A DNA stretch of 53,116 nt, filler included, from Jimgerdemannia flammicorona (lineage: Eukaryota): NCBI GenBank assembly GCA_003990765.1. It is 2 parts of 2 records of this genome, joined end to end, with 100 filler letters (N's around TTAATTAATTAA, not from the genome) between each part and the next. Parts side by side here need not be neighbours in the genome. Positions count along the whole stretch, not along the records: positions 26,613 to 53,116 come from RBNJ01000723.1; 1 more part is not named here. One strand, written 5' to 3'. A model generated the notes under the pieces. The model worked only from the letters and a program-made list of their open reading frames with translations, had not been told where the DNA came from and ran no database searches. Positions 10,100 through 51,895 of the stretch are shown piece by piece (the first letter of the stretch is position 1; each line of letters opens with the position of its first letter). Both the position numbers and the translations under genes were made by a program.

Positions 10100-10147
10100 T
10101 GTATAGCATAGTGTAGCGTATGTGTAAGAGGGGTGTATAGCCGCTAA

Positions 10148-10163
10148 CTGGGGCTCATAACCT
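10148..10163 (-). promoter_or_regulatory. Primer-binding site complementary to the initiator tRNA-Met anticodon arm (half-tRNA priming, Hemivirus type)
   Basis: Minus strand reads GGTTATGAGCCCCAG two bases after the 5' LTR, the same type of PBS as yeast Ty5 and Drosophila copia. Confidence 0.85.
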
Positions 10164-10165
10164 AT

Positions 10166-10314
10166 TGTTGTGGAATACTTGGAATGGAGGGAGCGAGAGA
10201 GAGTTTATTGATCCCAGCTTATATGCTTTTACATGTTCTAGATTGATGATGTATCCAAAGATTGGCTGTGCCACCACATATCGAGATATAACCCAAATTC
10301 TAGGAATTTCAACA
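10166..10314 (-). repeat. Copia 5' LTR
   Basis: Direct repeat of 5323-5471, followed by PBS and gag. Confidence 0.96.
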
Positions 10315-13300
10315 AAAATTTTGAGCATATCATATAGAGGTGAGTAACACAAGTAACCCACATTTTGGCATAGATGGGCTGACCACAGACAGAGAAAGTG
10401 AGATAGGAAATGTGAAATCTCAGTCATAGAAGAGTTCAAAGCACCAATGATAGGGTACTATGCTATGCATGCCCCTTTGTGTACTTTGGGCAAAGCATAA
10501 AACACAGATAGCTTATTATCATTGGGTTCCATGAGGTGATTCCAGACTGATATGCAACTTGTGTCATTAATACAGAACTCTAATAGACTCAATAGGTCTA
10601 ACTTCACTGATTCTCTAATATTATCAATTATAGAGAGATTGTTCATATATATAGGATCATGAAGGAGAGACTGAAGACCATTGAGATATAGAGCATATGG
10701 AAGTATAGTGAACCTCAGATTTTTGTCAGTAAGACAGACAGTAAAGTCATCATGAGTTTGGACATCTTTGAGAAGGCATTGGAACTTCTTTGGTATAAGC
10801 ATGCCAGACACATTCATTATGGGTCAGACTTGATTTAGTGTGGCAGCCATATGAAGCATAATTTACATATTTTCCATATAGTGTAGTAGTCACCATTTGG
10901 ATGGCACCCAGGCAGAGATCTCTGGGATATTGTTGGGATTATCCATAGAGGTTCAGAAGGTGGCAAGGTCAAGACATCATTGAAATGATGACAGCAAAAT
11001 TGGATCAATGGTGCTGTTCATCAATGCTGACCTGGGGGGAACAAACTTAGGGCCAAAGTTCAGTATATATGTGAGCTCAGGAGCAAGCCAAGGCAGAGAT
11101 ATATTGGTAACAAAGCCCTCCTCAGTAAACATCTGAAACTGAGAGATAAAAAACTGACTTAAATAGAAACCAGGAAGAGTTGACATGAAGGCAAAATCCT
11201 GAATTAGTTTTGAGGCAGCTACTCTATATGGAATGGAGACATCAGGGACAACTATGCTGCCAGGAAGTCATATAAGACTTCTGGGCTGGAAATCTCTAGT
11301 TTTTTGATGCTAAAGGACAGATATCACCAGTGTTGTGCCAGACAACATGATGTTTGGTAGCAGTACACTTGTTGTACTGTGGCACAAACACTCTGGTAGC
11401 ACTCTTGGAGAAGTGACTTGAAGTCGATAAGCAGCTCATATAGGTAGAAGTAGAAGAAACAGATGGAGAAGACAAAGCCTTATATGCTCACTTGACCCCT
11501 TTTACAGAACCCTCTGATAAGGCAGGGGATAGGGGACAAGGATCCCAATGAGTCTTTGTAGGGACACCAAGGCATCCAGAATAGTTGTAGCAGTTCAGCA
11601 CAATGGAGGCTAAAGTCATACTCACCCCCTTAACCTTTTCTGCAGCCCCTGCAGATGTGGTGGTAGAGGATCAGAGAGTGGAGACACTCTTTTTCAGCTG
11701 GGTGGAACCAGTGGCAATAGAAGCAAATGTACATTTGGCACCAAGAGTAACAATCTTGGGGTACTTCCCAAGCTCCTCAACTATAACTTTGTGGGCAGTA
11801 GCAGTTCCCTCTTGAAGAGATGAGGATGTGAGAACTATCAGGTGGACTGCAGTAGTAGTGGCTTTAGCAGTGGCAGCAGTAGCGAGATAGTGAGATTGAT
11901 GTATAATAAAGTCAAAACTATAAAGTAGAAACAAGTTTGTCTTGGCCTAGTCAGTAGTAACAAGAGTCGCAATATTCTTCCCAGCCCCTTGGGTGGTATC
12001 AGCTAGAATCCCAAAAAAGGCAAGTGCTTCTATGAAAACCCTCATAACTTTGTTAATTTTAGCATTTGTCCTTAGTGTGCTGGGTGGTGGTATCTTGATC
12101 AGATATGGCAGCCTCAATTGTGGCTTCAGTGTGGCGCTTGGCTTCAGCAGATACAATAATAAGGGTGACATCACACTATTCCTCTAGAAGGAGGGCAATC
12201 ACATCAGTAACCTTCTTGGAAGAGATAAACTTCCATTCAGTAAGTTGGACCAGCAGGAAGGCAGTATGGCACTTGTAAGTGATAGCTACCTTGAGGGCAT
12301 GGAGTACTCCAGTGTGAGCAGCATGGAAGATAATGCAGCCAGGTCATTGAACTTCATCAAGTCAGCAAAGGAAGTGGTGGAGATAGCAGCATCACCATCT
12401 ACATTCATATTATCTATCATGTTATGTATTATTAAATGAGTAGACAATAGAGAAAAAGGTTTTAGCAAGATGTGATGCTGATATGGCAGATATGAAATTT
12501 GGCAGTAAAAGTCAAATAATAGAAAATGATCAGTTTTTGTAAATTTTCACAATGAAGTGAGAATGTGGAATAAAGTGTTTTCCAAAGTAAGGAGCAATTG
12601 ATCTGCAAACTGCCCACAGTACCACAATATATGATGGTCTTTATTCAAATTAAAAAACAAAGTTTGAGTACAAAAGACATAGATCTAACCCTGGAATTCC
12701 AGAATTAGAATGGTATATAAGTACCCAGACCTTGCTTTATCTAAACAAAAGTCTGAATTGGGTATCATCAATCTATATACATGACAGATCATTAAAAACC
12801 CAATATAGAAATGTTCAGAAAAAGGTACTGGTCATGTGATCAAATGTTACATATGCATAAACGAATGCCAAAAATGGAACTAGACCAATAATGATTATAT
12901 ATTATCATGTGATTGTCACTTATAGGTTTAAAAACCTAAAAATCATCAGCACTCAAAGATACAGATATCAGGCCTAGAGCCTTGTGACTGGAGCAGAGTA
13001 GAGCCTCAGCACCAGAGTGAGCAAAGCAAGTGGAGATAGATAGGCATCACAAAGTATAGGTACACAGGTATTAGGCCTAGAGTCTTGCACCAGAGGTTGT
13101 CTAGTGATTTTTTGTATTTTTAAACCTATAAGTGACAATCACATGGTGAAATATGATCCACATTGGTCTAGTTCTGTTTTTGGCATTTGTTTATACATAT
13201 GTAACATTTGATCATATGACTAGTACCTTTTCCTGATTATTTCTATATCGTGTTTTTAATGGCCTATCATGTGTATAGATCAATGATGCCCGATTCAGAC

Positions 13301-22321: not shown

Positions 22322-23388
22322 CTGGTAGCAGCAGTGTCATTATACCTTGCCTTATTAAGAAACCTCACACAAATTTGATAACCAGTCACAACTAGTCACA
22401 CAAATCCAAAATGAGCCAAAAAGAGACAGTCTACCAGCCAGACCCCTCTGCTGCAGAAGAAGCAGGAGGATCGCAGCTCAACATAGAAGATATGATCAAT
22501 GCTATGGCCTACCAAATTCAAGAACTGCAAGCACAACTAGAACAGCAGAAAACACATACTACAGGTACATCACATCCTACCATAGCACTAGTCAGTTTCA
22601 AGCCACTCAAGCCAGATACCTTCAATGGCCATTGAGGAGGACTATCTATAGATGTATGGACCTTTGAGTTGGACCAATACTTCGAGCTCACAAGAATGGA
22701 AGATGACATGCAAGTCCAATTTGCCACCACACTCCTCTGAGGAAATGCAGCCATCTGGTAGCGCAACCATATTATGGTTACATCTGTACACTCATATGTA
22801 TGAATCAGAGATTGGGAAGCTTTCAAGAGAGCCCTTCACAAGCAGTTCAAGCCTGCTAATGCCACCAAGCTAGCCAGGGACAAGCTAGTGAACATCAAGC
22901 AACTCAAGTCTATGCAAAGCTACAATGTACAATTTTTGTCAATCCTACTTGAGCTACCAGTGGTATCTGAGGATAAAAAGATAGACTGCTATGTCTGAGG
23001 TCTGAAGGGAAACACACAAGTCAAGGTTGAGCTAGAGGAGCCCAAGACTCTTGATGAAGCCATGAGAATCGTCAATAGATTTGATATCATCACCTTTGGC
23101 AACTGCTTCGAACCAGAATACCACAAGAAGAACCACTTCAAGAACTGCCACAGAAACCAACCAAGAACAGTTGGCCTGACACCAATGGACTTAGACACTA
23201 TGAACAAAAAGAACACCAAGCTTACCCCTGAAGAAAAGGACTGCCTGAAGAAATCCAGAGCCTGTTTCTTCTGTTGCCAAACAGTACACATTGCAACCAA
23301 ATGTCCTAGGAAGACAAGTGAACTCTCAAGACCAGTCACCATGTTGGCCAAGGACACACCTGTCAATCTCACCACCAGTCAACTTGAG

Positions 23389-23796
23389 CTCAAGATCAAG
23401 AAGCTTCATCTGAAGGCCCAGGTCCCTCAACATCAAACAGAAGGAGCCATTGGTCTTGACCTACACTCAGTCAAACAAGTCACTATTCCAGTCAAGGGCT
23501 GCACTCTGGTGCCTACTGGAATTGCAGTTCAATGCCTTGAAGGACATTATGCTAGAATTGCACTGTGATCAGGACTCAGTGTCAAACATCATTTAGATGT
23601 AGGCACTGGTATCATTGACCCAGACTTTCGAGGACAAGTTCAAGTCTTGCTTGTCAACCAGAAGGATCAAGACTACACAGTTAAAGAAGGAGACTGAGTC
23701 GCACAAATGATCCTAGAAAAAGCCAGTCAACTCAAGATTACAGAATTCCAAGAACTCTCTGAAACCAAATGAGATCAAAAGGGTTTCGGCAGCACT
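23389..23796 (+). pseudogene. dUTPase domain of Gypsy-2, between the gag zinc knuckle and the protease
   Basis: AIGLDL, LVPTGIAV, ARIAL*SGLS, GIIDPDFRGQVQVLL, GD*VAQMI, KGFGST. Confidence 0.93.
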
Positions 23797-26512: not shown

Positions 26513-26612
26513 NNNNNNNNNNNNNNNNNNNNNNNNNNNNNNNNNNNNNNNNNNNNTTAATTAATTAANNNNNNNNNNNNNNNNNNNNNNNNNNNNNNNN
26601 NNNNNNNNNNNN
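26513..26612. other. Artificial assembly joiner (N44-TTAATTAATTAA-N44)
   Basis: Exactly 100 nt with a central linker that has stops in all six frames. Confidence 0.97.
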
Positions 26613-26909
26613 ATCTCGGCAACACGTAATCCGATTTTAATGTTCTTGGTATCATTAGAAAGGCCTTATTAAGGGCTTTCAAATGACACCAAGATCATCA
26701 AATTTGGATGATTATTCATCAAGTTATTGATGTAAACATTTAATTGTCTAATTTGGAAATCAAAACAATGGTTGATTCGAATCCGATTCGAATCCGATTC
26801 GAATCCGATTCGAATCCATCCGGATGGGATTCGAATCCGATTCGAATCTGATTCGAATCCAATTTGAATCCATCCGAATCCCATCCGGATTGACTCATTC
26901 GGAGCACTA
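26613..26909. mobile_element. Right end of a young hAT-family MITE or element
   Basis: Ends in ...TTCGGAGCACTA (TIR TAGTGCTCCGAA) after tandem palindromic GATTCGAATCC subterminal repeats; CpGs largely intact. Confidence 0.8.
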
Positions 26910-28466
26910 CATCACATGGTGGAGGTCTCAAAAGGAACAGAAGTAAGCCTTCATGAGCAATCTTGTACAACTTGTACAACTCATTGGCATATAACTTATC
27001 AGTATACAGCTCACTCACTCACTCACTCATGCTCTATTTCTGTAATACCCATCTCCATGTTTTATTTAATTTCATTTTTTATGTGGTCTCTTCCTAAAAA
27101 ACACTCATATCTGCATGCAATCTGCCTACATGCAACTCACCTATATACAGCCTGTCTACATATAACCTGTCTGCATGCAACCCATCCATATGTAACCTAT
27201 CTATACACTTATCTCAGTCCCTCAGATCAGGGCTCAGTTCTATTGGAAAGGAGAGTTCAAAGTTACTCGAGTTCAACTACATCCAGCATCTGATCAAATA
27301 GAGAAATTCAAGGGCAAGATATTTAGCATAAGTAGTACCAGCATTGTCATCAAGGCTTGGAGATCTATATTCGAATCAGAGCTAATCATTCTTGACTAAG
27401 GGGTCTATTGGCCAGCAGAAGTAACCAATGACAAAGAGAACTATATCTTTATTAATTAATGTAGAGAGGTGGCTGTGATAGTGATAAGAAATCTCTACAG
27501 TAATGAGCTTCACCACTATATCAACAAGATTTGCAAGGATTGTGTCAAATACTGGGTGGTAGAAAAGAGGGAGTGAAAAAAGCAAGGAGGGGGGGTTTGG
27601 ACAGGAATTGGATATACTATAACACTGATAAAGGGTGGGTTCTAGAGTTTTGAAATCTCCTACACTTGTCTCTCTTTTTTTTTACTCCTCCCCAGATAAA
27701 CCACACTCTTCACCAATATACTCTTTTTGATACAAATCCAGGGATACATAAGATTCTATACCCCTACTGAAACTTTAGAAGTACTATCAAAGAGCAAACT
27801 GCATGCAAGCATGACACAGCCTATGTGGCAATAGTGGCTATGATCTGGGGTTCTTTGAGCAGATTGGTAGAGCATATGGCAGGCCAGCTTGGTGGTGATC
27901 CCAGTGTGGCTGTATGTATATTCTTAGTGCAATTTAGTATGCTGTATGAGGTAAGGAGCTCTGCTTTTTTGAGGTGCTACAGCCCAGGGGGTTTCTGCAG
28001 CCCAGGGGGTTTTTGCTCCCCCCATACACAAAAAGAACTGACTGGTTGCCATCTGTTTTGGTAGGTTTCCAAACTGGGACTCTCAGGACTGGACCAAGAG
28101 CAGGCATCCACTAGCACAGCCTGGTAGTATGAGGTCCTGGACCAAGGGTTCACCCAACTGTATGCTTGTATCATATCAGGATATGTCAGGTGCAATCTTT
28201 CTCTGCCTATACACACAGACAACAATATCACCCCAGTAATGTTTTATATTTCAGAAAGGAAGGGCCCAACCTGGGAGGATAGCAGCAGAGTCTGGTACAA
28301 CCTCACCTATGGTTTCAGGGTCCCATTTGCAGCCAACATGACCATCCTCTTTCAACCACATGACTACCATAGTACCATTGCCTTCGAGGAGAGCTTGGAT
28401 ACAACAGTTGTCACACTCACAACAGATGATAGACTCATCAAGGCCTGGAACTGGTGGGTGGAGTAG
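26910..28466 (+). pseudogene. Spliced, decayed TET/JBP-like Fe(II) dioxygenase gene (exons 26910-26942, 27226-27634, 27742-27950, 28065-28466; 5' end cut by a MITE)
   Basis: Three GT-AG introns with matching phases give one reading frame (a few TAA/TGA/TAG stops) ending ...GYVRCNLSLPIHTDNNITPVMFY...SSRVWYNLTYGFRVPFAANMTILFQPHDYHST...; HxD plus a distal His about 52 residues later. Confidence 0.62.
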
Positions 28467-29500
28467 TTTTTGTGAGAGTTAGGCAATCTTTCACAAGGGA
28501 TAGGCAGTCTTTCATGAGGGTTAGGCAGTTATTTTGCATGAGTTGGGCAGTCTTATGTGAGGGGTTGGGCTGGGCACCTCTTCTGTAGTACTAGCTTAGC
28601 TATTATGCAGGGCCCTACCAGCCCCTTGGCCCTGCTCTGCAGTATCACTGGTATGGCACTGTGGCACAGGGCCAGAGTGCCCATGAGACTCAAACTGGTG
28701 ATGGGGCCTGAATCTATGGTGGACTCTGACTGCTGGAAATGCCCTCTAACTGCCAGAAGCACTCTCTGACTGCTAGAAGCACCCTCTGACTGCCAGAAGC
28801 ACCCTCTGCCCCAGACTCCTTGGTAGCTTGGGGCTGCTCCTGTGCCACTAGTAAAGGGCCACAAATTTTGCACACTCCCTCTACCTGCCCTACTCATCCC
28901 AGACACTTGCAGCTTAAGGCTGCCTCTTGCTACCAGCAGAGGGCTGCAAATTTTGTATACTCTCTTATCAACCCCATACCCACTGACCCTGCCAACCGAC
29001 CCTGCCCACTGACCTGGGTGCTGACAGCTTGGGGCTGCCTCTCACTGCTGGCAGAGGGCTGCAAATTTTGTGCACTCTCTCCATCTGCCCTGCTCATCTC
29101 AGATACTTGTAGCTTGGGGCTGCCCCTTGCTGCCAGCAGAGGGCTGCAAATTTTGTATGCTCTCTCCACTGACCCTGTGCCCACCAACTCCACTGACTGA
29201 CTCTGCCCACTGATCCAGGCACTGACAGCTTGGGGCTGCCCCTCACTGCTGGTGGAGGGCTGCCCCTCACTACTAGCAGAGGGCTGCAAGTTTTGTGTGC
29301 TCCCTCTACCAACTCCCCCAACTGGGACACTTGCAGCTTGGGGCTGCCCCTTACTGCTGGCAGAGGGCTGCAAATTTTGTGTACTCCCTCTGTCAACCCA
29401 CCCACCAACCCAGGCACTGACAGCTTGGGGCTGCCCCTTGCTGCTGGCAGAGGGCTACAAATATTATACACTCTCTCTGCCACTAATCCCACCAACCACT
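28467..29500. repeat. Imperfect tandem repeat array between the dioxygenase and hAT transposase 3' ends
   Basis: About eight copies of agcttggggctgcc...gcagagggctgcaaattttg at ~80-120-bp spacing (28820-29480), plus short 20-23-bp repeats at 28475-28560 and 28725-28805. Confidence 0.9.
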
Positions 29501-29627
29501 ACCTACTTGGGCCACAAACTCTGGGCCAAGTCCTCAGGGTTTTTTACCTTTTTATTATTTTTGAAAGGTATTAAATATTCCACAAGGCCAACCAATTTAT
29601 CTGCGAACCCCCAGGACCTACTGAATT

Positions 29628-32330
29628 TTAGTGGCCCAAGCCCCACTAAGACTTCAGACACATATACACCCAGATTGTCTCAGCATTCAGCACACACCTC
29701 TTTGGGGCAACAAGGTCTACCCTACCTGAGAATATCTGCTCGATGGGAGCACTAGAGGCAAGAATTGCCAGGTAGTCCCAAGTCATACCACACAGGCTGG
29801 GGAAGTCTGTTTGATGCAGCTACATACTCTAGTAGATAGAGTGGTGGGTAGAGTGGTGGTTAGATTGGTGGGTTAAATTGGTCCAATGCCCATCTGACAA
29901 CCCACCTTCCACCAGTTGAGCATCTCCATGCCCTCCAGCAGGATCACATGGTCACTGGTGAAATAAATGATAAGTTCATCTATTGACAGTAGCTCTTTTA
30001 CTGACAGCTCCCTCTTCCTCTTTCTGCTGAAGTAAATGTGGGGCAGGAGGGATCCCTCAGTATATTCATCTGGACTTCAGCTGGAACCTTGTGGCAGCAC
30101 ATAGTTTTCCTGGTACACTTTGATTATGGCCTGCTTGGTTCTCTCAATGAAGTGCTGCTCTCAGCCCTGATCTTTATGGTATTGTAGCTTTAAGCATAGG
30201 TCCAGCACTGTTTAAAGGAGAGGAGAGAGTGAGTTTTTGCAGAGGTTTCTCTGTTTTGGAAGAGGCAATAGCCACATACTGATATTGACATACCTGTACT
30301 GATTGAATATATAGCAGTATCTGTTTGGGAGTAGTACTTTCGGAACTTGCTAAGAGCAATCTCCATGGCATCTCTCTGATCTGAGCTTAACTGTAAATTA
30401 CCATAACCCTCCAGCCTGTCCTCAAGCTTGTCCTCTAGCCAGTCAATCAGAAGGTTGTATACTAGTATTGCCAAGCTTATTGTCAGGATCATTTATTTGA
30501 CTATATCCTTTGTACAATCATTGAAATACTGACAGTTATATGTGGTGAGGTATTGCATTGTGTGGAGGCAGACAAAATAAGTATGAAGGCTAACAAAATA
30601 AGTATGGAGCCAGAGCAATTACCACTTACTTCTAAAACTCTGACAATATTCCTAAGTACATCCCACTCACTTTTACCTAGAGCCTCGGCCCATATTTCCT
30701 TATCAGCAGTCACTGTTGAATCTATTGGCTTTTTTTGTTTTTTGTTTTTTTTTTTTTTAAAATAAATCTTCAATTATCTAAAACAAGTTGCTTCAGTCAA
30801 CTGAAGAAAAAATGAATGTATACTATAGCAAACTCCAGCATGTGCTGGATCATTGCAAATGTTGATTTCTAATGTATACAGATGTCCAATATAAGCTCTG
30901 TCAGGGCTAAACTAATTGCCCTACACTGTGTAGTGAATTTGTCTTGTCATTGTGGGGATGATCAGACTGATACAACCAGATTGCACAGCTTGGAAATTAT
31001 ACTCAGGGCTCCTCCTCTCTTGGATGTTTTGTCTATGTGAATAAGATAGTTCTGAACAGTGAGGTTCAGTATATGGGCCTGGCATCACACATGACAGCTT
31101 TCTGCACTGAAGGCCATATTTTCCTGTTTGAGGCTGGCTGCTAAAACTTTGAAAAATGTTGAGTTATTTGTGTTATTGTCCATTATAATGACCAAAATCT
31201 GTACTTGAAATATTTGGTTAGTGAATTTATGTGAAAATAAATAACTAATAAAATCTGGTTTGATTTAGGATCTCCCTCAAAACACTGACCTGACAGCAAG
31301 CCCCCCTTTTTTACCTTGGTTGTGATCCCAAGCTCTTGGATATAACTAATAAAAACATCTGCAATGTTGTCTCCAGAATGAGGGCCAGCAAGTTTGATGA
31401 AGTCAAGGGTGAGAGATTTAAGCTGCCAATTGAGGTCAATCTAATAACCAGTAATGCCCAGAAATGAAATTGCATTGGGGGATGTCAATATGTCGATCAT
31501 AAATGAAATTTTGTCTGCTGAATTCTGCTTATTGAATGTGATGTTAAATTTGTGAGCTCTTTTATATAATTCAGCTTGCAAAGATCATGGTGCTGCCCTT
31601 ATTTTACCTGAAGTGTCTGGTGGAGATTGTCATGCTCCTTCATAGGTCTCCAGGACATCTTTGCAAATAGTATTGGTACTTGGCAAATATAAATCATACT
31701 TGAGGAGGCCAAAGATGCTATGTAATTAATCACTCTCGATAGTTGTGAATGGCTGGTCTGTGTACACAATCCAGTGAATAAGCCGATTTTGAAATTCTGC
31801 CAAAGTGTATGGCTAAGTATTTTTGATTAAATGGTGTTGTTGGTACAGAAATGGTCAGGCAATCAGATAAATATACACACAACAGCTTGGATGTTGATTT
31901 TATTTATCTCTGTGTTCTTTTTGATTTTGTTAGAGTGCTTGTCTTTTATGTGTTAATTCATATTCGAAGTCATACCCTCAAGCATTTTGAACTTCTGGCT
32001 GGTGCAGTTTATGGGGGTAGATGAAACAATATCATGTGTATGTCAAAATAAACAAAAAGTATCAATAGGTGCATCTTAATTTTTCACCTGCAATAATTAC
32101 AAACAATATCATCTCCTATCTTAGTACAATATTGCCAGATTTTGGAGCAAAAATTACATGGAAGGTGTGGAACTATCAGGGATATTTGACTTGAAGCATT
32201 ATTGGTACTGTGAACTGTTGAAGACTGATCTGTCAACATGTGTGTTTGCATGTTTGCATGTATATATATATATATGTGTATGTATTGTGTATGTGTGTGT
32301 GTGTATTGTATTGTGGATATGTTCGACATA
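29628..32330 (-). pseudogene. hAT transposase, intron-containing, decayed (copy 1)
   Basis: BED-like SKIWQY...IVCNYC; WIVYTDQPFTTIE; DILTSPNAISFLGITG; DFIKLAGPHSGDNIA; MDN..NN; CQAHILNL; C-terminal dimerisation motif DYLAILASSAPIEQIFS...LNAETI...CLKS. Confidence 0.9.
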
Positions 32331-32339
32331 TGAGTTATG

Positions 32340-32678
32340 TGGAGGATTTGGATTGGAGGATTCAGTTGAAGGATTCAGATGAGGATTCAGATTAAAGGAT
32401 TCAAATTGCAGGATTTGAATTAGAGGATTTGAATTGGAGGATTCATATTGAGTTATTTGGATTGAGTGATTCAGATTGAGTAATTCAGATTGAGTAATTT
32501 GGATTGAGTGATTTGAATTGAGGTGGTTCAGATGGATGATTCGGATGGGGTAATTCAGATGGGGTAATTCAGATTAATCCAAGTTGATTCAGATGGCTTT
32601 GGATTTGAGATTTGGATCAAACCATTATGTGACAAATCAAATCCGAATTTGATTCAAATTGACTCATTCAGAGCACTA
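32340..32678. repeat. Subterminal GATTCRGATT-like repeats and TIR of hAT copy 1
   Basis: Short repeats ending in GACTCATTCAGAGCACTA at 32678. Confidence 0.85.
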
Positions 32679-33004
32679 CTTGTACATATGTTGGAGTTTC
32701 AGATATATATATGTCTTCAGTTATAGGTATATAGTTGTTTACTCTTTAGTAGTAGAAAGAGCATAGTGTATAGAATAAGATATGAGTAACTATAACTGCT
32801 ATATCTAGTATAGTCAAGCTACTAGACAATAGCTATATAACCTAGATTTAATAGAGATATAGTGCTTGGGGAGTAGTAATAGAGAGTTTTGGCCTATATA
32901 ATCTAAGTTCTCTTCTAATAAAATCTACAGAACTTTGAGTCTATAAAATAAAAAAAAAAATAAAAAAAAAAAAAAAAAAATAATAAAAAAAATAAAAATA
33001 AAAA
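32679..33004 (+). mobile_element. Possible strongly decayed retroposon 3' end with A-rich tail
   Basis: AATAAA at ~32917 followed by a ~60-nt A-rich tract at 32944-33004; no TSD identified. Confidence 0.3.
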
Positions 33005-33024: not shown

Positions 33025-34976
33025 TTTTTTTTTTTGTTTTTTTTTTTTTTAAAATAAATCTTCAATTATCTAAAACAAGTTGCTTCAGCTGACCAAAGAA
33101 AAAAAGGACACATACCACAGCAAACTCCAGCATGTGCTGGATTATTGTAAATGTTGAGTTCCAATATATACAGACATCCAATATAAGCTCTTTCAGGGCT
33201 AAACTAATTGCCCTACACTGCATAGTGAATTTGTCTTGTCATTGTAGGGACAATCAGACTGACACAACCAGGTTGCATAGCTTGGAAATTATACTTAGGG
33301 CCCCTCCTCTCTTGGATGTTTTGTCTATGTGCATAAGATAGTCCTGAACAGCGAGGTTCAGTACATGGGCTTGGCATTATATACAGCAGCTTTCTGCACT
33401 AAAGGCCACATTTTCCTGTTTGAGGCTGGCTGCTAAAACTTTGAAAAATATTGAGTTGTTTGTGGCATTGTCCATTGTAATGGCCAAAATCTATACTTAA
33501 AATATTTGGTCAGCAAATTTATGCAAAAATAAATAACCAATAAAATCTGGTTTGGTTTAGGACCTCCCTCAAAATACCAACCTGATGGCAAGCCCCCCTT
33601 TTTTACCTTGGTTGTGATCCCAAGCTCCCAGATACAACTAATAAAAGCATCTGTGATATTATCTCCAGAATGAGGGCCAGCAAGTTTGACAAAGTCAAGG
33701 GTAAGAGATTTAAGCTACTAATTGAGATCAATTCAATGACTGGTAATGCCCAGAAACAAAATTACATTAGGGGACATCCATGTGTCGATTGTAAATGAAA
33801 TTTTACCTACTGAATTCTGCTTATTGAATGTGAGATTAAATTGGTAAGCTCTTTTATATAATTTAGCTTGCAAAGGTCATGGTACTGCCCTTATTTTACC
33901 TGAAGTATCTGGCAGAGATTGTTGTGCTCCTTTCTATAGGCCTCCAGGATATCTTTGTAAATAGTATCAGTACTTGGCAAATATAAATCATGCTTGAGGA
34001 GGCCAAAGATACTATACAATTGATCACTCTCAATAGTTGTGAATGGCTGGTCTATATGTATATACAATTCAGCAAATGAGTCAATTTCAAAATTCTGCTG
34101 AAGAGTATGGCTAAATATTTTTGATTAAATGGCATTATTGGTACAGAAATAGTTGGGCAATCAGATAAACAAACCCACCACAGCTTGGATGTCAATTTTA
34201 TTTGTCTCTATGTTCTTTTTGATTTTGTCAGAGTACTTGTCTTTTATGTGTCAATTCATGTTCAAAGTCGTACTCCTAAGCATTTTGAATTTCTGGCTGG
34301 TGCAGTTTATGGGGGTAGATGAAATAATATCATGTGTATGTCAAAACAAACAAAAAGTGTCAATAGGTATATCTTAATTTTTTACCTACAATAATTACAA
34401 ACAACATCATCTCCTATCTTAGTACAATATTGCCAGATTTTGGAGCAAGGATTGCATGGAAGGTGTAGAACTATTAGGGATATTTGACTTGAAGCATCAT
34501 TGGTACTGTGAACTGTTGAAGACTAATTTGTTGACATATATATTTTCATGTTTACATGTATATACATATATATATATATATATTGTATATGCATATATAT
34601 ATATTGTGTTGTGGACACATCTGGCATATGAGTCATATAGAGAATTTGGATTGGAGGATTCAGTTGAAGAATTTGGATGAGGATTCAAATTGAAGGATTC
34701 AAATTGGAGGATTTGAATTGGAGGATTTGAATTGGAGAATTCAGATTAAGTAATTTGGATTGAGTGATTTGGATTGAGTGATTCAGATTGAGTGATTCAG
34801 ATTGAGTGATTCAGATTGGGGTGGTTCAGATGGGTGATTTGGATGGGGCAATTCAGATAGGATGATTCAGATTAATCTGAGTTGATTTGGATGGCTTCAG
34901 ATTTGAGATTTGGATCAAACCATTATGTGACAAATTGAATCCAGATTTGATTCAAATTGACTCGTTCAGAGCACTA
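33025..34976 (-). mobile_element. Truncated hAT element (copy 2), direct repeat of ~30731-32678
   Basis: Collinear with copy 1 from the poly-T tract to the TIR (...TTCAGAGCACTA at 34976); lacks the C-terminal transposase part. Confidence 0.9.
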
Positions 34977-35111
34977 CCTGCAGACCTCAATCACATTGCT
35001 ATGTCAGCTCCTAATTTTAGTTGAGTGTAGTCAAGATACCTGAAATAGGTAGTCTCAGGCCCCCCTAATAACTAGGGCCCAACCTGTCAAATTGCCAAAA
35101 AAAGCTGAGAG

Positions 35112-35498
35112 TAGTGCTCCCAAATAAGTCAAATCAATTCAAATTGAATCAAATTGAGGGTTAAACAAGTTGAATCGAATTGGAGATTTTTCAATTCAAA
35201 TTAATTCAAATCAAATCAAAAGTCAAATCAAATTGAGGGTCTGATTTGAACCCTAAATTTCAAAATGTAATAACTCAGTGTAAACTCATCCAAATCTAAT
35301 GTACTTTAGCTTGTTAGAATCACATTAATACAGTGAATCTAACAAGCTAAAATACATTAAATTTGGATGAGTTTTTGTCAAGTTATTACATTTGAAAATT
35401 AAGGGTTGAATTGAACTTCAAATCGAATTGGACCTTTGATTTGATTTGAATCAAATCAAATTGGACCCTTGATTCGATTTGATTCGTTAGGAGCACTA
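35112..35498. mobile_element. hAT-family MITE
   Basis: TIRs TAGTGCTCC / GGAGCACTA; 8-bp TSD GCTGAGAG / GCTAAGAG; AATCGAAT-like subterminal repeats; internal inverted repeat. Confidence 0.9.
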
Positions 35499-37171: not shown

Positions 37172-38732
37172 GTATAATGGTGATCCCAGAATGATGACAT
37201 CAGCACAGGAGACAGTCTTTCCTTGCAAGCCACCAGATCGGAGCACAAGAAGATCATATGGTATATGAGATGAGTAATAATGACCAACTGTGAGTCATTG
37301 TGACCACAGTTGAGTATTTTGAGGAATATAAAAGAAGAATCAAGAAACTGCAGTAGTAGCAACCAACAAGACCCACCAATCCCAAAATAGCTCAAAGACT
37401 TACTACAAATAAAATGTCTGCTGCTCACCAAACCTCAAAGTCAAGAAACTACCAAGGCATCTCAGTTGAAGAAAGGATGTTCCAAGACATCAGAAAAGCC
37501 ATAAGGACCCACTCAAGAAGGACTCCTAGTGTCAATCTGAGTACTAGTGACCCTTATCACTATATCCTCTATTACTATTGCTACCAAATACCTCCAAATA
37601 TAGTAGGAGTACAAAATAGAAAATCTCCTCTGCTGGGATTTCCCACAGACCTGCCCCCAAGAGCTATAAGATATCACTCCTATGGATATATATAAGGTAA
37701 GGACAGCTAAGAAGATCTATCAGATCTTCAGGCATGCACCATGGTCAATCCCCAACTTGGAGTATGTTAGAGTTTCAGACTTCAGAGACCTGTTATCTTA
37801 CCATATCAATGCACTAGAAGCCAGGGTAGCTACAGAAGCCCAGTCCACTATTACCTTCAATAGTGATGAAGTAGAAGACTTCTGGCATTCCATTCTTCAG
37901 GACAACCTAGACCAATTCCTGCAAGGATTGATCTCAGTATTCCAAGGCCCAAGCATCTAGGTTAGACCCACATTTGTCTCCTATTTTGTGGAAGAGAACC
38001 TCATAGATTGAAGAGCCCCTGATTTCCCCACTACTGAATGTGATGACATCATCAGTGATGATGTCATCCCGTATGACATATGTAAAATGTGCAATGAAAC
38101 ACATGAAGTATACAAAATATATGATGATGATGACCACACAGATGAGATATTCATGGACCTCATCTCCTTCAAAGACATTCTGATCTCTGAGAATGAAGCC
38201 CCCATGGTCTTGAACATTCTACTCTAAGTCCCTTAGTTATACTGAATAATGCCAGCACTGGCATTTTGATGTAATACTGAATAATACCAGCACTGGCATT
38301 TTGATGTAACACTGAATAATACCAGCACTGGTATTCTGATGTGATACTGAATTATACCAGCATTCTGAACCTATATAACCATCAGTACCAACTCTAGAAT
38401 TTCTTAGTTTTTCCTGTCTTGGTATTTTATTTTAGTTATTGAAATTTATATTTAGCTTTATATCTTAGCAACCATTGAATTATATTTTGTATAAATATCC
38501 CTCTTATTTCCTCTGAAATAAAGTCAGTTCTGGTTCACTTATATATATATAATTCCTTACAAGCAATCTAAGAGGTAACAAGACAGTTAAAGATAAGAAG
38601 TTTGAAGACTATAAGACCTTGAGAAGGTACTCCAATAAGAACTTGCTTATAACAAACTTGAGTTAGTCTAAGAGATATATCTTGAAGAGAATCTGGCATA
38701 TTTGAAGAACTCAGCGACCACTATATGACAAC
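37172..38732 (+). repeat. Long direct repeat of ~44425-46019 (extra-ORF region plus LTR) preceding Gypsy-3
   Basis: Collinear match including translated RVSDFRDL, ISVFQGPSI and SENEA...LNILL, a 35-bp tandem repeat (38240-38360), TATA and AATAAA signals. Confidence 0.9.
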
Positions 38733-41700
38733 TTAGTACTCATTGGCTGGTGATTCAAGATGAATCCCTCACTTTTAAGCTGAAAAATGAACAACCCCCA
38801 CAACAACTACCCTGACTACAAGAGTCACCCTGCAAGAATTCAAGATAAGATAGAAATGCACCCCCCCATATTCTATAGATATACTACTGAAGAGTCAATC
38901 CTGACCTTTATTGAAGACTTTGAACAATTTGCCACTGTATGAGCCCTTGGTGTGGATGCACAATTGGCCCTTCTATCAGTCAGCCTCAGAGGACCTGCCA
39001 GAGACAAGTTCAATATAGCTACTATTACTGATAATAGTACAGCTAAACTTGCCAATATGAAGGCCTTCCTCAGAACAACATACTATACTGAAGAGATCAA
39101 GCAAGCTCTCAAGGATCAACTCAATACTATCTGCCAGAGACTCAGTGAAGATCCCAACTCATTCTATACCTGAATCTGCCACCAGATTATCTTGGCTGGC
39201 TATGATGATACCCTCAAGGAACAAATAGCAGATTCAACCTTTCTCAAAGGAGTTCACCCTGAAATTGCCTTAGCAATCCAGTCTACCCCAGCTACACTAA
39301 CCCTTGATCAGAAAGTGGTCTTTGCATAGAGATATTGGACTGTCAGACACCCTGCTGAACACTTAATGGAGAAAATAACTAATATCAAGATAGAGCTATT
39401 GAAGCCAACCAGTATCATATCTGCTATAGTTGTAAACAGATAACCATCCCCACCTACCCCCAAGACAACCAAAGCTGATCCAGTAGAGGAACTTGCCAAG
39501 TAGTTCACTAAAATAACTGCATATCTTAGTAATGTTATTAGAGAAGTCTGAAGTGCCAACAGGAGACCAGTGCAGAGATTTGCAGCTGCTATAGAAGAAT
39601 GCAATATCACATACTTCAGATGTGGAGAAGAAGACCACTATATAAAGAATTGTATGACCAAAATAAGATATAAAGCCCAACCAAGTAATACGAGCAGAAC
39701 TAGAGAACAAATCAATACAGTAATCATCAAGGAGATTGGTGACACTGATGATGAAGAATACTATGAGGAGCTTGAATTCTACTCTGCTACTGAAGATACC
39801 AGAACCTGGTCCAAGCCCTATGACAAGAAGAGCAACAGCAAGCCAGTTGGAAGACCAAAGAAGACCCCAGCTGTTACAATATAAAGTAAGACCCAACCCA
39901 AGGAGATTGATCAAGATATGGAGTTAGATGAAGCTGCCTGCCAAATCATAGAAGGCACTACTCTAGTCTCAGGAGAAAGCAAAAGCAAGAAGGAACAGAA
40001 GCTGTGCAAGACCAAGATCCATCAGTATGATATTTATAAAGACCTCAAGGAACAGAAGGTCAATGCTACTTTTGGATAACTAGCTGAAGTCCCTGCCTTT
40101 AGACAACAGTTGAGAGTAGGACTTACAACTACTGCCAAGAATCAAGAGTACAAGATTGTAGAAGCTCACAATACACAGGAAGAATCTGAGAACTCAGATA
40201 AAGAATCTGAAGACCAGTACAAGACATCAGCCTATACCCTATATCAGATTGAAGATTGTATCTTTGATGTCATCATTGATACCAGTGCTAGAGGATACTT
40301 CATAAGCAAGAAGGCAATTGACTGCCTAGGTTGGGATATTGAAGAGTCCACCAAGATGGTCTATGTCACAGCAGATGGTACATGAGCTACCCCTCTTGGC
40401 AAAATCTGAGAAGTCCCCATCAAGATAGGAGGAGCTACTATCCCAGTAGATATGATTGTTACAAGCACCACTAACTATGATATCCTCATTGGCAATCAAT
40501 GACTTCATAAGGCCAGAGCTATCATTGATCTCAATGCCCAGAAGATACAGATCAATTATAGAGAAAGAAAGGTATGAGTCTCTATCAATGTCCATAAAGA
40601 AGTTCTACCAGACATAGAGGAAGGAGATGAAGAGGACACAGAAGTCTTCATATACTCAGTGAACAAGAACAAGAATAAGACACTCAAGCTCATAGATGAG
40701 TAGTAGTATAACAAGATCATTGATGGCTATATCCCTCAAGGAAGATGCCCCCATGGTATTAGGATGTACTGCTCTAAACATCTGAATGACTGCTGGTCCT
40801 GTATCAGTGAAGTCAGGAAAATCCACCAACAGAAATATGAGCAAGAAGCTACCAAAGCAAAAAGGAAAGCCGGAAAAAATGACCAGCTCCCTGAGCTTCA
40901 AGCTGACAGTGACGATGAGGAGGAACAAGAATCAGACATCACCCTCAAGGTTAAGAAGTTTCACCCTGAAGCCAAGATCCCAGAATACAAGACTGAAGAA
41001 ACCATAGGAATGGACCTTGCCAGCATTCAAGATACTACTCTTGAACCACAGACCACCACCCTACTTGGCACTGGAATTGGAGTCAAGCTGCCAGAAAACT
41101 ATACCAGAATTATCAAGACCAGGAACAGTCTGGCCAAGAGCGAAATCTCAGTTGAAGGAGAAGTAATTGACCCTGATTATACTGACAAGATCTTTCTCAT
41201 AGTCAGAAATCACAACCCCACCACTCCATTCAAAGTCAAGAAGTATGACAGGATTGGCCAGATGCTGATCCATGAAATTAAGAAACCCAAGATCATTGAA
41301 GCCATTGAACTCATCAAGACCAAGAGAGGAGAACAAGGCTTTGGATCTACTGGAAGAGGAGTCTATACTGCCACCAAGATTACTGAACTTGAGCACAAGA
41401 AAGACAAGAACCAGAACAAGCACACATATACTATTGGAGAAAACTTTCCCCTAGAGGAACAACTTCTCAAGATCCTGCACCAGAACAAAGGAGTACTTGC
41501 TACAGACTTCAGGGATATCCACAATCAAGAACCCAAGTACTATCATAAAGTTGACACTAGTGATACCAAGCCCATCTACCAGAAAGCCAGACCCATACCA
41601 CCTACCTACAGAGAATGGCTGTGAGCAGAACTCAAGGAAATAGAAGAAGCCAGAATCATCAAACAAGCTATTAGTCTCTGGGCTTCACCCATTATCCTTG

Positions 41701-44700
41701 CTCCAAAGAAAGGAAGCAAGTCTGGAGAGTTTGCATCAAGACTCTGTATTGACTACAGGAAGCTCAATACCATCACCAAGAAGGATAGGCAGCCCTTGCC
41801 AAATATTCAAGAAATCCTTACCACTCTCAGAAGCAAAGCCAAATACTACACCACCTTGGATCTGTTCTCAGGCTTCCATCAGATTGGTCTCACTCAAGAT
41901 GCTAGTGAGAAATCAGCCTTTATCACACCTGATGCCACCTATATCTATCTGCAAATACCATTTGGAATGTGCAATATCCCAGCAAGTTTTCAGTAAATGA
42001 TGAACAGAATCTTCAGCAACAAGATTAGAAAATGGCTCTTTGTCTATGTTGATGATGTGATCATCTTCAGCAATACTGCATGGGAATATGTCAATCACAA
42101 TACAGCTAGCTTTCAAGAAGCTCAAAGAGCATGGCCTCTATATTAAGCCTAAGAAATATAAGTTTGCAGCTCAGGAAATTGCCTATCTAGGACATCCCAT
42201 CAACCAGACCAGAATCCACACAGACTTTATGAAGATTGAGGCTGTTGCAGCCTACTCGAGACCCAGAAAACCCACAGAAGTCCATGCCTTCCTTGGACTA
42301 GCCAGCTACTATAGAAGATTCATCAAAAGATATTCCAACATTGCAGCACTTATCTACAAGCTACTGAAGAAAGAAACTAAATTTAAATGGACCAAGGAGT
42401 ACTAAGAAATCTTCAATGAGCTCAAGACCAGGTTGACCCAAGTACCTATCCTCAGAAGACCAGATTGGAATCTAGAATTCATCCTGCAGACAGATGCAAG
42501 TGCTATAGGACTTAGAGTAGTCCTAGCTCAGAAGAAAGATGGACATGAATATGTCATCTCCTATGCAAGCCAAGGCACCCACAGAGCAGAACAGAACTAT
42601 GAGTCATATAAGCTCAAATACTTAGCAGTAGTTTGGGCAGTAGATAAGTTTCACTACTACCTAGCTAGAAAATACTTCACTATTCAAACAGACTATTCTG
42701 CTCTTGTCTGACTATTCCACACTCTAAACCCCAAAGGAATATATATCAGATGAATCTACAGGCTGCAAGAGTATGACTGTACTATCAAGCACTACTCAGG
42801 GAGAACCAATGCTGATATACTCTCAAGGACACCCTGAAACACCCCCATCAAGACTATTCAACATGAATAAGGAGCTATACTATGGATTAATTGGCTACCT
42901 TAGGCAGTAGAAGATGCCCAACCACCTCAAACTCTGGACAATTACCATCATCAACCAGACTTGGAAACAGTTTAAACTAGACAACATTATACTCAGAAAA
43001 AAAGAAAAGCTAGTAATACCTGAATACAAGAAGTATCAAGTAATGAAGGAAGTACATGAGTAAGGATACTTAGGAGGAACTAACACATATGATAAGGTAA
43101 GAAGAACTATATGGTGGCCCAAGATAGAAGAAGGCCTGTGCCAATTTGTCAAAGAGTGTGATAAGTGCTAAAAACAGAAACAAGATCAGCAAGACCAGGT
43201 ATCTGGGTCATCAAGAATTGAGCCTATCCCCTTCCACCATATCACAATAGATATTATTGGGCCACTATTAGTAACACTATCAGGAAACTACTATATTATA
43301 GTTATTATAGACCTCTTTACCAAATGGATAGAAGCAGGAGCATTACAAGAAACCAATGCCCTCTCTATAGCTGACTTCTTGTACTGAAAAATTATCTGCC
43401 GCTACAAGACACCAAAGAAAATCACAACAGACTATAGCACAGAATTTGTCAATAGATTCCATGAGATAATATATCAGAAATACAAGATTCAGTACATCAA
43501 GACCACTACATACCACTCTCAAGGAAATGGACAGACAGAGAGAACCAATAAGACCCTCAAGAACATTCTGACAAAGATCTCAGAGACATATGAGAATTGG
43601 GATAACTATCTTCCAACTGCCCTCTCTGTTTTACAAAATATATAATCACAGAGCACAAACTTTACCCCAAGAGAACTGCTCTTTGGAGAAGATTCTGACA
43701 GAATCTCAGCTACAAATCTAGATCTAACTTGGAGATGAGTTGATGCAGAAATCTGGAGACTATACCAAATCAGGAAGAAGGCTGAAGATTATATTATCAA
43801 GTCACAAGTGCTGACAAGAAAGAATGTGGAAAAGAATTACAAGACCCTAGAACCCATCTGAATCAGAGAAAAGGTCCTACTATATCGAAATATGGTAGAA
43901 GCCTCATGGTCATGAAAACTGGAGCCCAAATGGGAAGAACTCTTCTATATGTAAGATATCAAGGAAACTATCTTCTGGCTTAGAAAAATCTCAGGGACCA
44001 TACTGCCTATCATGGTACATAGGAACAGACTCAAGAAGTACCATGAACCTATACAAGAGAAGCAAAACATAATGACCACCTGTGAGGTTCTAGTCTGCAA
44101 ATTGTAACAGCATGTCCTATGACCAGCAGGCTATCTGTCTGGACTATTCTCTAAGAGATACAGTACCAGCAACTACTCATCCATGAGACTTTCAAAGCCA
44201 GAGGAGTTCAAACCATCAACTGATTAGTTAAGATCAGAATCAGGCCCTTGCTCTATATGAAGGGAATGACCCTTCACTATCACACCAAAATATATAGGGA
44301 AGACACCAGCCCATAAATACTACTTTTTAACCCCTTGCCAGAGGTTATAGGATCAGCAAATTTTTCAGGACTGGACCAATGAATAAGGATATGTACTCGA
44401 GAAGATTCTTATTCAGAAGGAAGATATAATAGTGACCCCAGAATAATGATATCAGCACAGGAGACAGTCTTTCCTTACAAGCCACCAGATCAGAGCACAA
44501 GAAGATCATATGACATATGAGATGAGTAATAATGATCAACTGTGAGTCATTGTGACTATAGTTGAGTATTTTGAGGAATATAAAAGGAGAATCAAGGAAC
44601 TGCAGTAGCAGTAACCAACAAGACCCACTAATCCCAAAATAGCTCAAAGACTTACTATAAACAAAATACCTGCTGCTCACCAAATCTCAAGGTCAAGAAA

Positions 44701-46019
44701 TCACCAAGGCATCTCAATTGAAGAAAGGATATTCCTAGACATCAGAAGAGCCATAAGGACCTGCTCAAGAAGAACTCCTAGTGTCAATCTGGGTACTGGT
44801 GACCCTTATCACTATATTCTCTATCACTATGAAATAGAAAAAAGGATCATCATTACTACCAAATGCTTCTAAATATGGCAGGAGTACAAAATAGGAAATC
44901 TTCTCTACCAGGAGTTCTCACAGACCAGTCCCCAAGAGCTACAAGATGCCACTCCTATGGATATACATGAGATAAAGATAGCTAAGAAGATTCATCAGAT
45001 CTTCAGGCATGCACCATAGTCGATCTCTAACTTGGAGTATGTTAGAGTCTCAGACTTCAGAGACCTGTCATCCTGCCATATTAATATACTAGAAGCCAGA
45101 GTGGCTACAGAAGCCCAGTCCACTATCACTCTCAATAGTGATGAAGTAGAAAACTTCTGATATCCCATCCTTCAGGACAACTCAGACCAATTTCTGCAAG
45201 GATTGATCTCAGTATTCCAAGGTCCAAGCATCCAGGTTAGACCCCCCCAAGACCTCACATTTGTCCCCTATTTTGTGAAAGAGAATCTCATAGATTGGAG
45301 AGCCTCTAATTTCCCTGTTGCTGAATATAATGATATCATCAGCAATAATATCATCTCACATGATATATGTGAAACACATAACAAAACATGTAAAGTACAT
45401 AAAATATGCGATGACAACAACCACACAGATGAGATGTTTGTAGACCTCATCATCTTCGAAGATATCCTGACCTCTGAGAATGAAGCCTCTATAGTCTTGA
45501 ATATTCTGCTCTAAGTCTCTTAGTTACACTGAATAATGCCAGCACCAGCATTTTGATGTAACACTGAATAATATCAGCACTAGTATTTTGATGTAATACT
45601 GAATAATGCCAGCACCAGTATTCTGATGTGATACCAAATTATACTAGCATCCTGAACCTATACAACCATCAGTACTGACTCTGGAACTTCCCAGTTTTTT
45701 CTATCCTGGCATTTTATTTTAGTTATTGGAATTTATATTTAGCTTTATATCTTAGCAACCATTGAATTATATTTTGTATAAATACCCCTCTTATTTCTTC
45801 TGAAATAAAGTCAGTTCTGGTTCACTTATATATATATAATCCCTTACAAGTAATCTAAGAGATAACAAGACAGTTAAAGATAAGATATTTGAGGACTATA
45901 AGACCTTAGGAAGATACTTCAATAAGAACTTGCTTATAACAAACTTGAGTTAGTCTAAGAGATATATCTTGAAGAAAATCTGATATATTTGAAGGACTCA
46001 GTGACTACTATGTGATAAC
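38228..46019 (+). mobile_element. Decayed Ty3/Gypsy (Gypsy-3): gag-protease-dUTPase-RT-RNase H-integrase-extra ORF, flanked by direct repeats
   Basis: gag (FIEDFEQFA; ICQRLSEDPNSFY; knuckle remnant YFRCGEEDHYIKNC), protease VIIDTSA, RT LCIDYRKLN, LDLFSGFHQI and VYVDDV, RNase H LQTDASAIGL, integrase IDIIGPL and GNGQTERTNKTLK. Exact LTR start unresolved. Confidence 0.92.
40945..41355 (+). pseudogene. dUTPase domain of Gypsy-3, between protease and RT
   Basis: VKKFHPEAKIP, IGMDL, LGTGIGV, TRNSLA, VIDPDY, DRIGQMLI, RGEQGFGSTG. Confidence 0.93.
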
Positions 46020-51714: not shown

Positions 51715-51730
51715 CTTTTTTCGGCTGCAC

Positions 51731-51763
<33 letters not shown>

Positions 51764-51842: not shown

Positions 51843-51895
51843 ATGATGATTTCATCGCGTTGCATGGCCAAAGCCACACACTGGGACGCTCATCC

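Follow-up and report, generated by a model that had tools for sequence, protein, structure and literature searches.

The window analyzed here is a stretch of 53,116 nucleotides of Jimgerdemannia flammicorona DNA (GenBank assembly GCA_003990765.1), in which two parts of two records are joined end to end with filler letters between them; positions from 26,613 onwards come from RBNJ01000723.1. Positions 26917-28466 on the + strand carry the remnant of a spliced gene, which probably encoded a divergent member of the TET/JBP family of 2-oxoglutarate/Fe(II) dioxygenases. An earlier reading made from the sequence alone (here called the sequence-only reading) had proposed a hidden spliced TET/JBP-like gene at this place. 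A real spliced gene family is indeed present, but in the window it is represented by a 5′-truncated pseudogene, which has six internal stops and has lost conserved residues by mutation. The model of this copy is based on comparison with P0006, a relative of 374 amino acids, and with L001, a locus of 3666 nt found in a scan of metagenome contigs. It consists of the following parts:

26917-26952, + strand: remnant of an N-terminal exon reading WWRSQKEQK*AF (asterisk, stop codon) in the exon-2 frame; the 5′ side is cut off by a transposon of the hAT family (copy C, see below), and the stop is a TAA at 26944-26946
26953-27225, + strand: intron 1, placed by homology; the acceptor AG at 27224-27225 is common to L001, and the donor now reads AT
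27226-27634, + strand: exon of 136 codons plus 1 nt, homologous to residues ~28-167 of P0006; stops at 27397, 27457 and 27574
27635-27741, + strand: intron 2, GT-AG, splitting a Gly codon in phase 1, in agreement with L001 in both position and phase
27742-27950, + strand: exon for the middle part of the protein, which is long and helical; in-frame TGA at 27768 in place of the R or S of relatives
27951-28064, + strand: intron 3, GT-AG, phase 0; position and phase as in L001
28065-28466, + strand: last exon with the predicted catalytic core; in-frame TAG at 28125 and terminal TAG at 28464

The spliced window reading is collinear with P0006, L001 and a further relative, P0008, over 339 codons of the alignment. 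The exon joints of L001 (F/ARHQF, ..AS(G/G)MH in phase 1 inside the Gly codon, and ..RLYL/DHPTLPRLD in phase 0; slashes mark the joints) have their counterparts in the window in ..AF/IRAQF, ..IK(G/G)IH and ..MLYE/VSKLGLSGLD, and the 38 codons of intron 3 are lacking in P0006 and P0008. Position and phase are thus kept at protein identities of 25-48%, and at the level of sequence comparison this confirms introns 2 and 3 as well as the intron 1 acceptor. The sequence-only reading had given GT-AG ends at 26943/27225, 27635/27741 and 27951/28064; all of these are present in the sequence, as are the peptides it quoted, each in its frame. Of its three introns, the second, the third and the acceptor of the first agree with L001 in codons and phases, but the donor at 26943 is not supported; its GTAAGC holds the in-frame TAA. 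The match in the exon-2 frame runs to 26952, therefore the exon end is placed there, and the GT of the donor at 26953 has presumably mutated to AT. The proposed first exon (ATG at 26916, MVEVSKGTE) was not upheld either: it has no homology, the relatives match the exon-2 frame instead, and the start codon is not real. The N-terminal remnant aligns locally with residues 14-26 of P0006 with a score of 43, which was reached by none of 300 shuffles, while the other two frames score 16-22. Upstream exons that are present in L001 have no counterpart in the window. At the other end, the last exon provides an open frame of 112 codons (P0001), and the frame 27771-28463 has only two stops in 231 codons. 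The relative P0003 has a Q at the position of the terminal TAG at 28464 and extends five residues further. The intact gene is eukaryotic, spliced and about 374-384 codons long.

An exhaustive phmmer search retrieved five of 1.84 billion representative proteins at E≤1e-3: P0003 (136 aa, 73% identity, E 1.3e-58), P0004 (50%, E 3.6e-27), P0005, P0007 and P0006 (35%, E 1.3e-6). With P0006 as query P0008 was returned (259 aa, E 8.8e-59) and no further protein, a profile search with the family alignment brought no new member (P0006 and P0003 only), and a word-based protein search with P0001 gave no relative among 33 candidates. All protein relatives come from metagenome assemblies and are unnamed or termed "hypothetical protein"; the cluster of P0005 has 28 members. 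The family is rare, unannotated and unnamed. Searched against the window with tblastn, P0003 matches over 130 residues (73% identity, E 1e-55) and P0006 in two collinear segments that lie in different frames and meet at intron 2 (residues 92-167, matching 27412-27636, and residues 167-343, matching 27741-28391; E 2e-16 for both together). These matches show that the stretch is a diverged copy of a real protein family. The scan of metagenome contigs yielded two loci, L001 with an open reading and L002 (2870 nt) with stops. L001 represents an intact copy of the gene, unlike the dead one of the window. Each locus matches P0006 in three blocks, which are separated by AT-rich GT-AG introns and break at the codons and phases seen in the window. 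Although they originate from different metagenomes, the two loci agree at ~99% of positions over 2715 nt, introns included; of their 28 differences, 23 are transitions, and 15 affect CpG sites. No relatives were found in the viral and prokaryote contig collections. Downstream of the TET-like gene L001 carries a second multi-exon open reading (2320-3256, +; pieces of 93, 94 and 96 codons), for which neither a Pfam match nor a window counterpart was found.

TET/JBP enzymes have a GG-containing strand between the HxD motif and the distal His, and the distal His is followed by a small residue (H-x-small). The sequence-only reading had named N...HxD, a GG strand and a distal His about 50 residues on as features of compact TET/JBP enzymes such as Naegleria Tet1, and HxD, GG and the distal His recur in this order in the intact relatives: P-x-H-x-D is followed by GG, YN..YG and H-G-(S/T)-T. 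The GG of the intact members (P0003-P0008, L001) lies 21-24 residues past HxD and aligns with the GG of phage TET/JBP proteins, and H-G-(S/T)-T is found in all of them, 52 residues past the first His. H-(V/T)-D is present in P0003, P0004, P0006, P0008, L001 and the window; among 17 inspected proteins of clusters 3 and 5, 11 have HVD, four have HVN and two are fragments without the site. Fourteen positions are invariant in six sequences (P0006 numbering: F262, Q264, H283, T289, V291, R298, G300, Y311, Y315, G316, V319, N324, F329 and H335), and H283, D285 and H335 are invariant or conserved in the alignments. The window copy still has the His (28212-28214) and Asp (28218-28220) within IHTD and the distal His (28368-28370), 52 residues apart. 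It is these residues, H, D and H, that would bind the metal in the family.

For profile comparison a TET/JBP reference of 32 representatives was built from Mycobacterium phage Cooper gp2 (PF12851), its IMG/VR relatives and the cyanophage P-HS2 clade. The reference is restricted to phages because PF12851 was absent from the 401 Pseudomonadota genomes and the five single genomes searched. With hhalign, the 6-row family alignment matched this profile locally with a score of 38.1 (P 2.2e-4, probability 45%, 108 columns) and globally with P 2.9e-6 (probability 75.6%), both modes staying below the usual standard of 90-95%. P-x-H-x-D falls on PYHRD, GG on GG and HG(S/T)T on HGVTP, and the N-terminal strand-helix block is aligned too. 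With fewer sequences P was 0.0093, and smaller alignments in a separate hhalign run gave P 0.0045 with the register unchanged. Reversed profiles scored 16.5 and 16.2, and 38.1 was reached by 0/85 templates shuffled in ten-column blocks and 0/85 shuffled in twenty-column blocks. Control profiles of AlkB (35 representatives; score 16.7, P 0.21) and prolyl hydroxylases (PF13640 members from 30 loci; score 16.4, P 0.28) gave no comparable score. The signal appears in both directions: a TET hidden Markov model (HMM) is positive on 6/6 family sequences (P 1.5e-4 to 1.3e-2) and the family HMM gives at best 8.7 bits on TET sequences, while HMM scores with the two control families range from −3.5 to 0.5 bits and the family HMM is negative on both. 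Among the three 2-oxoglutarate oxygenase families compared as profiles, TET/JBP is therefore the only one to give a signal. As a lead only, the neighbourhood of P0006 in the ESM Atlas points in the same direction: rank 1 (0.96) is a basidiomycete cluster with PF20515 in 15% of its members, and rank 11 (0.91) is a viral cluster with PF12851 in 16%.

The window copy itself is a dead, 5′-truncated pseudogene without function. The six internal stops of the homology-based model lie at 26944, 27397, 27457, 27574, 27768 and 28125. That stops in this copy go back to single C>T or G>A changes, as the sequence-only reading had suggested, could be verified for the C>T cases at 27768, 28125 and 28464, where the relatives carry R, Q and Q and one C>T accounts for each. 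Conserved G residues have turned into S or R via G>A at the first codon position, as seen in GG to S-R, HG to HS (so that the distal His stands in H-S-T and not in the H-G-T of the relatives) and VG to VR. The loss of the GG had been noticed before, but its codons are AGC AGA (28284-28289), whereas the AGC AGC that had been assigned to it begins one codon further left. The reported loss of CpG is pronounced, with 3 CpG in the 1241 nt of the gene remnant and an observed/expected ratio (CpG o/e) of 0.051.

The remnant lies in a cluster of transposons, as the sequence-only reading had stated, with hAT, Ty3/gypsy and Ty1/copia elements around it. The following elements adjoin it:

26613-26909, + strand: right end of a young hAT copy (copy C), terminal ...TTGACTCATTCGGAGCACTA ending at 26909; its body extends leftwards beyond two runs of N
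28467-29648, no strand: GC-rich spacer of tandem repeats, with 20-nt units at 28724-28808 and 87- and 200-nt units at 28855-29497; CpG o/e 0.024
29649-32678, − strand: decayed hAT copy A, with a transposase pseudogene from ~32374 to 29649, subterminal repeats and the terminus ...CAGAGCACTA at 32678
33025-34976, − strand: partial hAT copy B, 87% identical to 30733-32682, right terminus as in copy A
35112-35498, + strand: non-autonomous hAT member of 387 bp, resembling a miniature inverted-repeat transposable element, with the terminal inverted repeats (TIRs) TAGTGCTCC / GGAGCACTA and GATTYGA subterminal repeats

The hAT domain was first seen in a six-frame Pfam scan of 26.6-37.2 kb, in which Dimer_Tnp_hAT (PF05699) matched at 29649-29819 on the − strand; scanned as an isolated open reading frame (ORF), this stretch scores 28.3 bits with a cut-off of 21.4 (E 1.5e-6), and the spacer at 28467-29648 gave no Pfam match in six frames. 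The ORF pieces of copy A up to ~32374 show BED-finger-like and hAT-core-like motifs by eye, with a weak Pfam match to zf-BED (E 0.14), and are followed by GATTYGA subterminal repeats up to the terminus at 32678. The 21-mer TTGACTCATTCGGAGCACTA(C) at the end of copy C also ends the hAT copies at 32678 and 34976. The 387-bp element is flanked by an 8-bp target-site duplication (GCTGAGAG / GCTAAGAG), which was obtained from this one element only. The dimerization domain, the short TIRs and the 8-bp duplication place the neighbouring elements in the hAT superfamily. Copies A and B (30733-32682 and 33025-34980) differ at 244 of 1950 nt; 227 of the differences are transitions, and only nine lie at surviving CpG sites. 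This excess of transitions shows that the region underwent strong deamination-type decay, by deamination of 5-methylcytosine (5mC) or a process resembling repeat-induced point mutation. Copy C, with about 10 units of the subterminal repeat GATTCGAATCC at 26774-26881, is rich in CpG: CpG o/e is 1.71 in 26613-26909 compared to 0.05-0.09 in its neighbours. The TET-like homology begins 8 nt beyond its terminus at 26909, and the simplest reading is that the gene copy was already old when a young hAT copy landed in what is now its first preserved exon.

The octamer CTTGTACA stands in tandem in intron 1 (CTTGTACA-A-CTTGTACA, 26962-26978) and also borders the right end of copy A (32679-32686). Chance, a preference for certain target sites or the footprint of an excision could each account for this. 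Its interpretation as the left end of copy A was discarded, as the flanks differ and no TIR follows the octamer. Likewise discarded was the possibility that 26613-28466 is the 3′ long terminal repeat (LTR) of the Ty3/gypsy element at 23-25.7 kb, since a 5′ counterpart is lacking and it is the TET-like gene that this stretch encodes.

The neighbourhood raises the question whether the TET-like gene was cargo of a hAT-family cut-and-paste transposon. The transposase of copy A is convergent with it, has its 3′ end 1.2 kb away and is equally decayed, and L001 resembles the ends of the window's hAT copies in having GATTYGA-type repeats and the motif TTGACTCGTT 1.65 kb downstream of the gene. The right end at 32678 and the transposase lie to the right of the gene, and no left end was found on its left. 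The terminus at 26909 is oriented as the other right ends and therefore belongs to another copy. Three results speak against the cargo claim: no left TIR was found in the window for copies A, B and C, the TET-like gene is present there only once, with no second DNA-level likeness to it, and the other parts of L001 have no copies in the window. Because a left end was not found, the cargo status can only be inferred from the neighbourhood, and we consider the chances to be evenly balanced. The remnant might alternatively come from an ordinary host gene that degenerated once hAT and LTR elements had inserted around it and turned the region into a transposon graveyard. This would fit the single copy in the window and the lack of an enclosing TIR pair, the sole adjoining terminus (26909) being that of a younger, interrupting element. 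We nevertheless regard a host gene as unlikely, as near-identical copies, some with stops, occur on many metagenome contigs in a repeat-like manner, and the L001 repeats and the transposase with equal CpG loss mentioned above point to a mobile element.

For the identity of the encoded protein, several results weigh against a TET/JBP enzyme. hmmscan found no Pfam match, including PF12851 (Tet_JBP) and PF20515, for P0001, the exon 2 read-through and the L001 exons (E≤10) or for P0003-P0007 (E≤1); the family proposed by the sequence-only reading is supported by the profile signal with phage TET/JBP and the three motifs in register but not by a Tet_JBP or 2OG-FeII_Oxy match. Cooper gp2, a bona fide phage member, itself stays below the PF12851 cut-off (28.2 compared to 34.9 bits, E 4e-8). 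PDB sequence searches with the family profile and P0006 gave nothing at E≤10, a PDB search with P0001 using phmmer returned two unrelated matches only (E 0.78 and 1.4), the PHROG search resulted in unrelated weak matches only, and the ESM Atlas had no usable match for P0001. AlphaFold2 models were of low confidence, with a mean predicted local distance difference test score (pLDDT) of 33.9 for the single sequence and 36.9 for the 6-row alignment, and Foldseek found no match to the latter model at E≤0.001. The hhalign probabilities are modest, and several alignment versions and option sets were used, so the P-values do not come from a single pre-planned test; in addition, one 20-column block around HxD contributes ~27 of the 38 score units (twenty-column shuffles average 27.0). 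Moreover, the 2-oxoglutarate-binding Arg of the phage proteins (GYR.S, ~15 residues past the distal His) aligns with non-basic residues, and a candidate Arg 20-21 residues past the His, though shared by the window with P0003, P0004, P0006 and P0008, is lacking in L001 and P0005.

The protein could accordingly be a 2-oxoglutarate/Fe(II) oxygenase of the double-stranded beta-helix superfamily from outside the TET/JBP clade, which may act on a protein or a small molecule. Besides the missing Tet_JBP and PF20515 matches and the unconserved position of the TET-type Arg, the Foldseek results agree with this: of the 37 matches shown for the low-confidence model, 18 are prolyl-hydroxylase-type 2-oxoglutarate oxygenases, cupins occur as well, and none is a TET/JBP chain. 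We gave these matches no weight, since at a pLDDT of 37 they are meaningless. The comparisons with prolyl hydroxylases and AlkB are at noise level, in contrast to the signal with phage TET/JBP in both directions, and the order of conserved blocks, judged by eye, is that of the PE-type TETs carried by fungal transposons as listed by Kojima (2025; PMC12730594), which makes an oxygenase of another clade improbable. Slightly less probable still is a transposon accessory protein of another fold that resembles TET/JBP in HxD...GG...H by chance, for while the direct family and structure searches were all blank, the local hhalign probability is only 45% and the Atlas recognition score of 2142 lies under the level of 91 of 100 known-family proteins, such a protein would hardly show three motifs in register with conserved spacing together with the N-terminal strand-helix block, a score that none of the 170 shuffles and neither of the two reversals reached and that is specific with regard to two control families, and eight beta strands in the last 120 residues of even a poor AlphaFold model.

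Taken together, the motifs, the Atlas neighbours, the hhalign and HMM scores and the block order of the PE type make a TET/JBP-type dioxygenase the most likely identity of the family, and on this sequence comparison we hold it with good though not full confidence. The more detailed reading, with 26917-28466 as the pseudogene of a spliced gene from a divergent TET/JBP branch to which the PE type is nearest by block order, is likewise probable, if a little less so. By analogy with characterized TETs, an intact copy would form a double-stranded beta-helix, on which Fe(II) would be bound by P-x-H-x-D, through its His and Asp, and by the His of H-G-(S/T)-T. The predicted enzyme would oxidize a methylated base in DNA, most plausibly 5mC, which could help the carrier transposon to evade methylation-based silencing. 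The gene may have moved as cargo of a hAT-family transposon, as its neighbourhood suggests. In the window copy, C>T and G>A decay has led to the six stops, the changes of GG to S-R and of HG to HS and the CpG o/e of 0.05, and the 5′ exons are cut off at 26909/26910, at the end of a hAT copy that belongs to this family but is younger and rich in CpG.

TET/JBP genes borne by transposons have already been described in fungi (Kojima, 2025; PMC12730594). In that study, the PE-type TETs reached HHpred E-values of only 1.4 and 19 with CMD1 and NgTET and were recognized with the help of AlphaFold comparison (PMC12730594). Like the family described here, they are associated with transposons and have diverged too far to be recognized by ordinary family models (PMC12730594). 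By eye, the present family shares the block order NYIF.D..E.V..V.RN, GYSAG, GG.F...DYG, FHGT(T/S) and T..RL.K with the PE-type sequences of Table S1 (PMC12730594), and the C-terminal T..RL.K of these is also seen in P0003 and the window. The hallmark given for the PE type is HxE (PMC12730594), whereas the present family has HxD. The PU type is represented by the Puccinia TET+ hAT7 element, in which a hAT-superfamily transposon is tied to a TET/JBP-like gene, as inferred here; its target duplications are reported as 7 bp, compared to 8 bp in the one complete element of the window, and the PU-type motifs in Table S1 differ (for example, F(Y/H)N.PH.D and R.GFSCQ; PMC12730594).

The phage TET/JBP proteins (Cooper gp2 and the P-HS2 clade) share with the family P.H.D, a GG 21-24 residues on and HG.T 27-28 residues further, at an identity of ~18% over aligned columns. 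They have an R.S.VYY strand past the distal His, which the family lacks; in the hhalign alignment it falls on l-s-l-s-V. The phage genes are unspliced and paired with ParB-like genes, whereas the family gene is spliced. The compact enzymes NgTet1, CcTET and CMD1 are also small single-domain proteins of ~300-400 residues with HxD...H spaced by ~50 (described in part in PMC12730594), although no sequence match of the family to any PDB chain was obtained at E≤10.

What is new is the lineage, which is unnamed, missed by Pfam, PE-like with HxD and apparently linked to a hAT family with 8-bp duplications. Tentatively, and with somewhat less than even chances, P0003-P0008, L001 and L002 represent a fourth, undescribed transposon-borne TET/JBP lineage, PE-like, with HxD, carried on an 8-bp-duplicating hAT element and unseen by Pfam and in annotated proteomes. 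If so, the capture of TET genes by DNA transposons would involve more carrier superfamilies, and perhaps more hosts, than the three catalogued fungal types suggest. By means of transposon-encoded TET enzymes, mobile DNA may remove the methylation marks set by its host. The fungal examples were catalogued only recently (Kojima, 2025; PMC12730594). A further lineage missed by standard models would show that annotation undercounts counter-silencing genes, and would provide a compact new enzyme for assays on 5mC, 6mA and T. The window could be viewed as the trace of an arms race, with a TET-like gene that is itself depleted in CpG, full of stops from C>T and G>A changes and broken up by a hAT copy, younger than the decayed downstream transposase but of one family with it.

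The remainder of the window is eukaryotic repeat DNA as well. Apart from the Ty1/copia element listed below, CpG o/e is 0.02-0.11 from base 1 to ~46000, where it jumps sharply to ~1.0 (46001-53116, with 318 CpG). Rfam and tRNA scans of the window gave no match. Among sequencing runs, no RNA run was listed for it, only one soil-metagenome DNA run with a word share of 0.05, which is not used as evidence. In Pfam scans, one Ty1/copia element and three dUTPase-encoding Ty3/gypsy elements were detected:

851-1783, + strand: dUTPase domain (PF00692) of a Ty3/gypsy element, E 7e-22
22999-23565, + strand: dUTPase domain (PF00692) of the second Ty3/gypsy element, E 2e-6
40707-41621, + strand: dUTPase domain (PF00692) of the third Ty3/gypsy element, E 2e-23
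6014-10823, − strand: Ty1/copia element with gag, Pol_BBD, SH3_retrovirus and RVT_2

In the Ty3/gypsy elements the dUTPase domain sits between gag/protease and reverse transcriptase, and the third element has LTRs of 1.56 kb at 37173-38732 and 44425-46019, which are 86% identical. Ty3/gypsy elements with a dUTPase, the taxa of the Atlas neighbours and the likeness to fungal PE-type genes are indirect hints of a fungal host. The Ty1/copia element has a CpG o/e of 0.5-0.65, far above the 0.05-0.1 of the surrounding repeats, and is therefore a younger insertion. Immediately upstream of the region of the TET-like remnant two runs of exactly 44 N each (26513-26556 and 26569-26612) flank TTAATTAATTAA, next to a run of T; because of them, it is uncertain whether the Ty3/gypsy element to their left is continuous with the hAT end to their right. 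Inside the CpG-normal right part of the window, an ORF at 52188-52481 encodes a ribosomal protein of the bL34 type (PF00468, E 1e-21).

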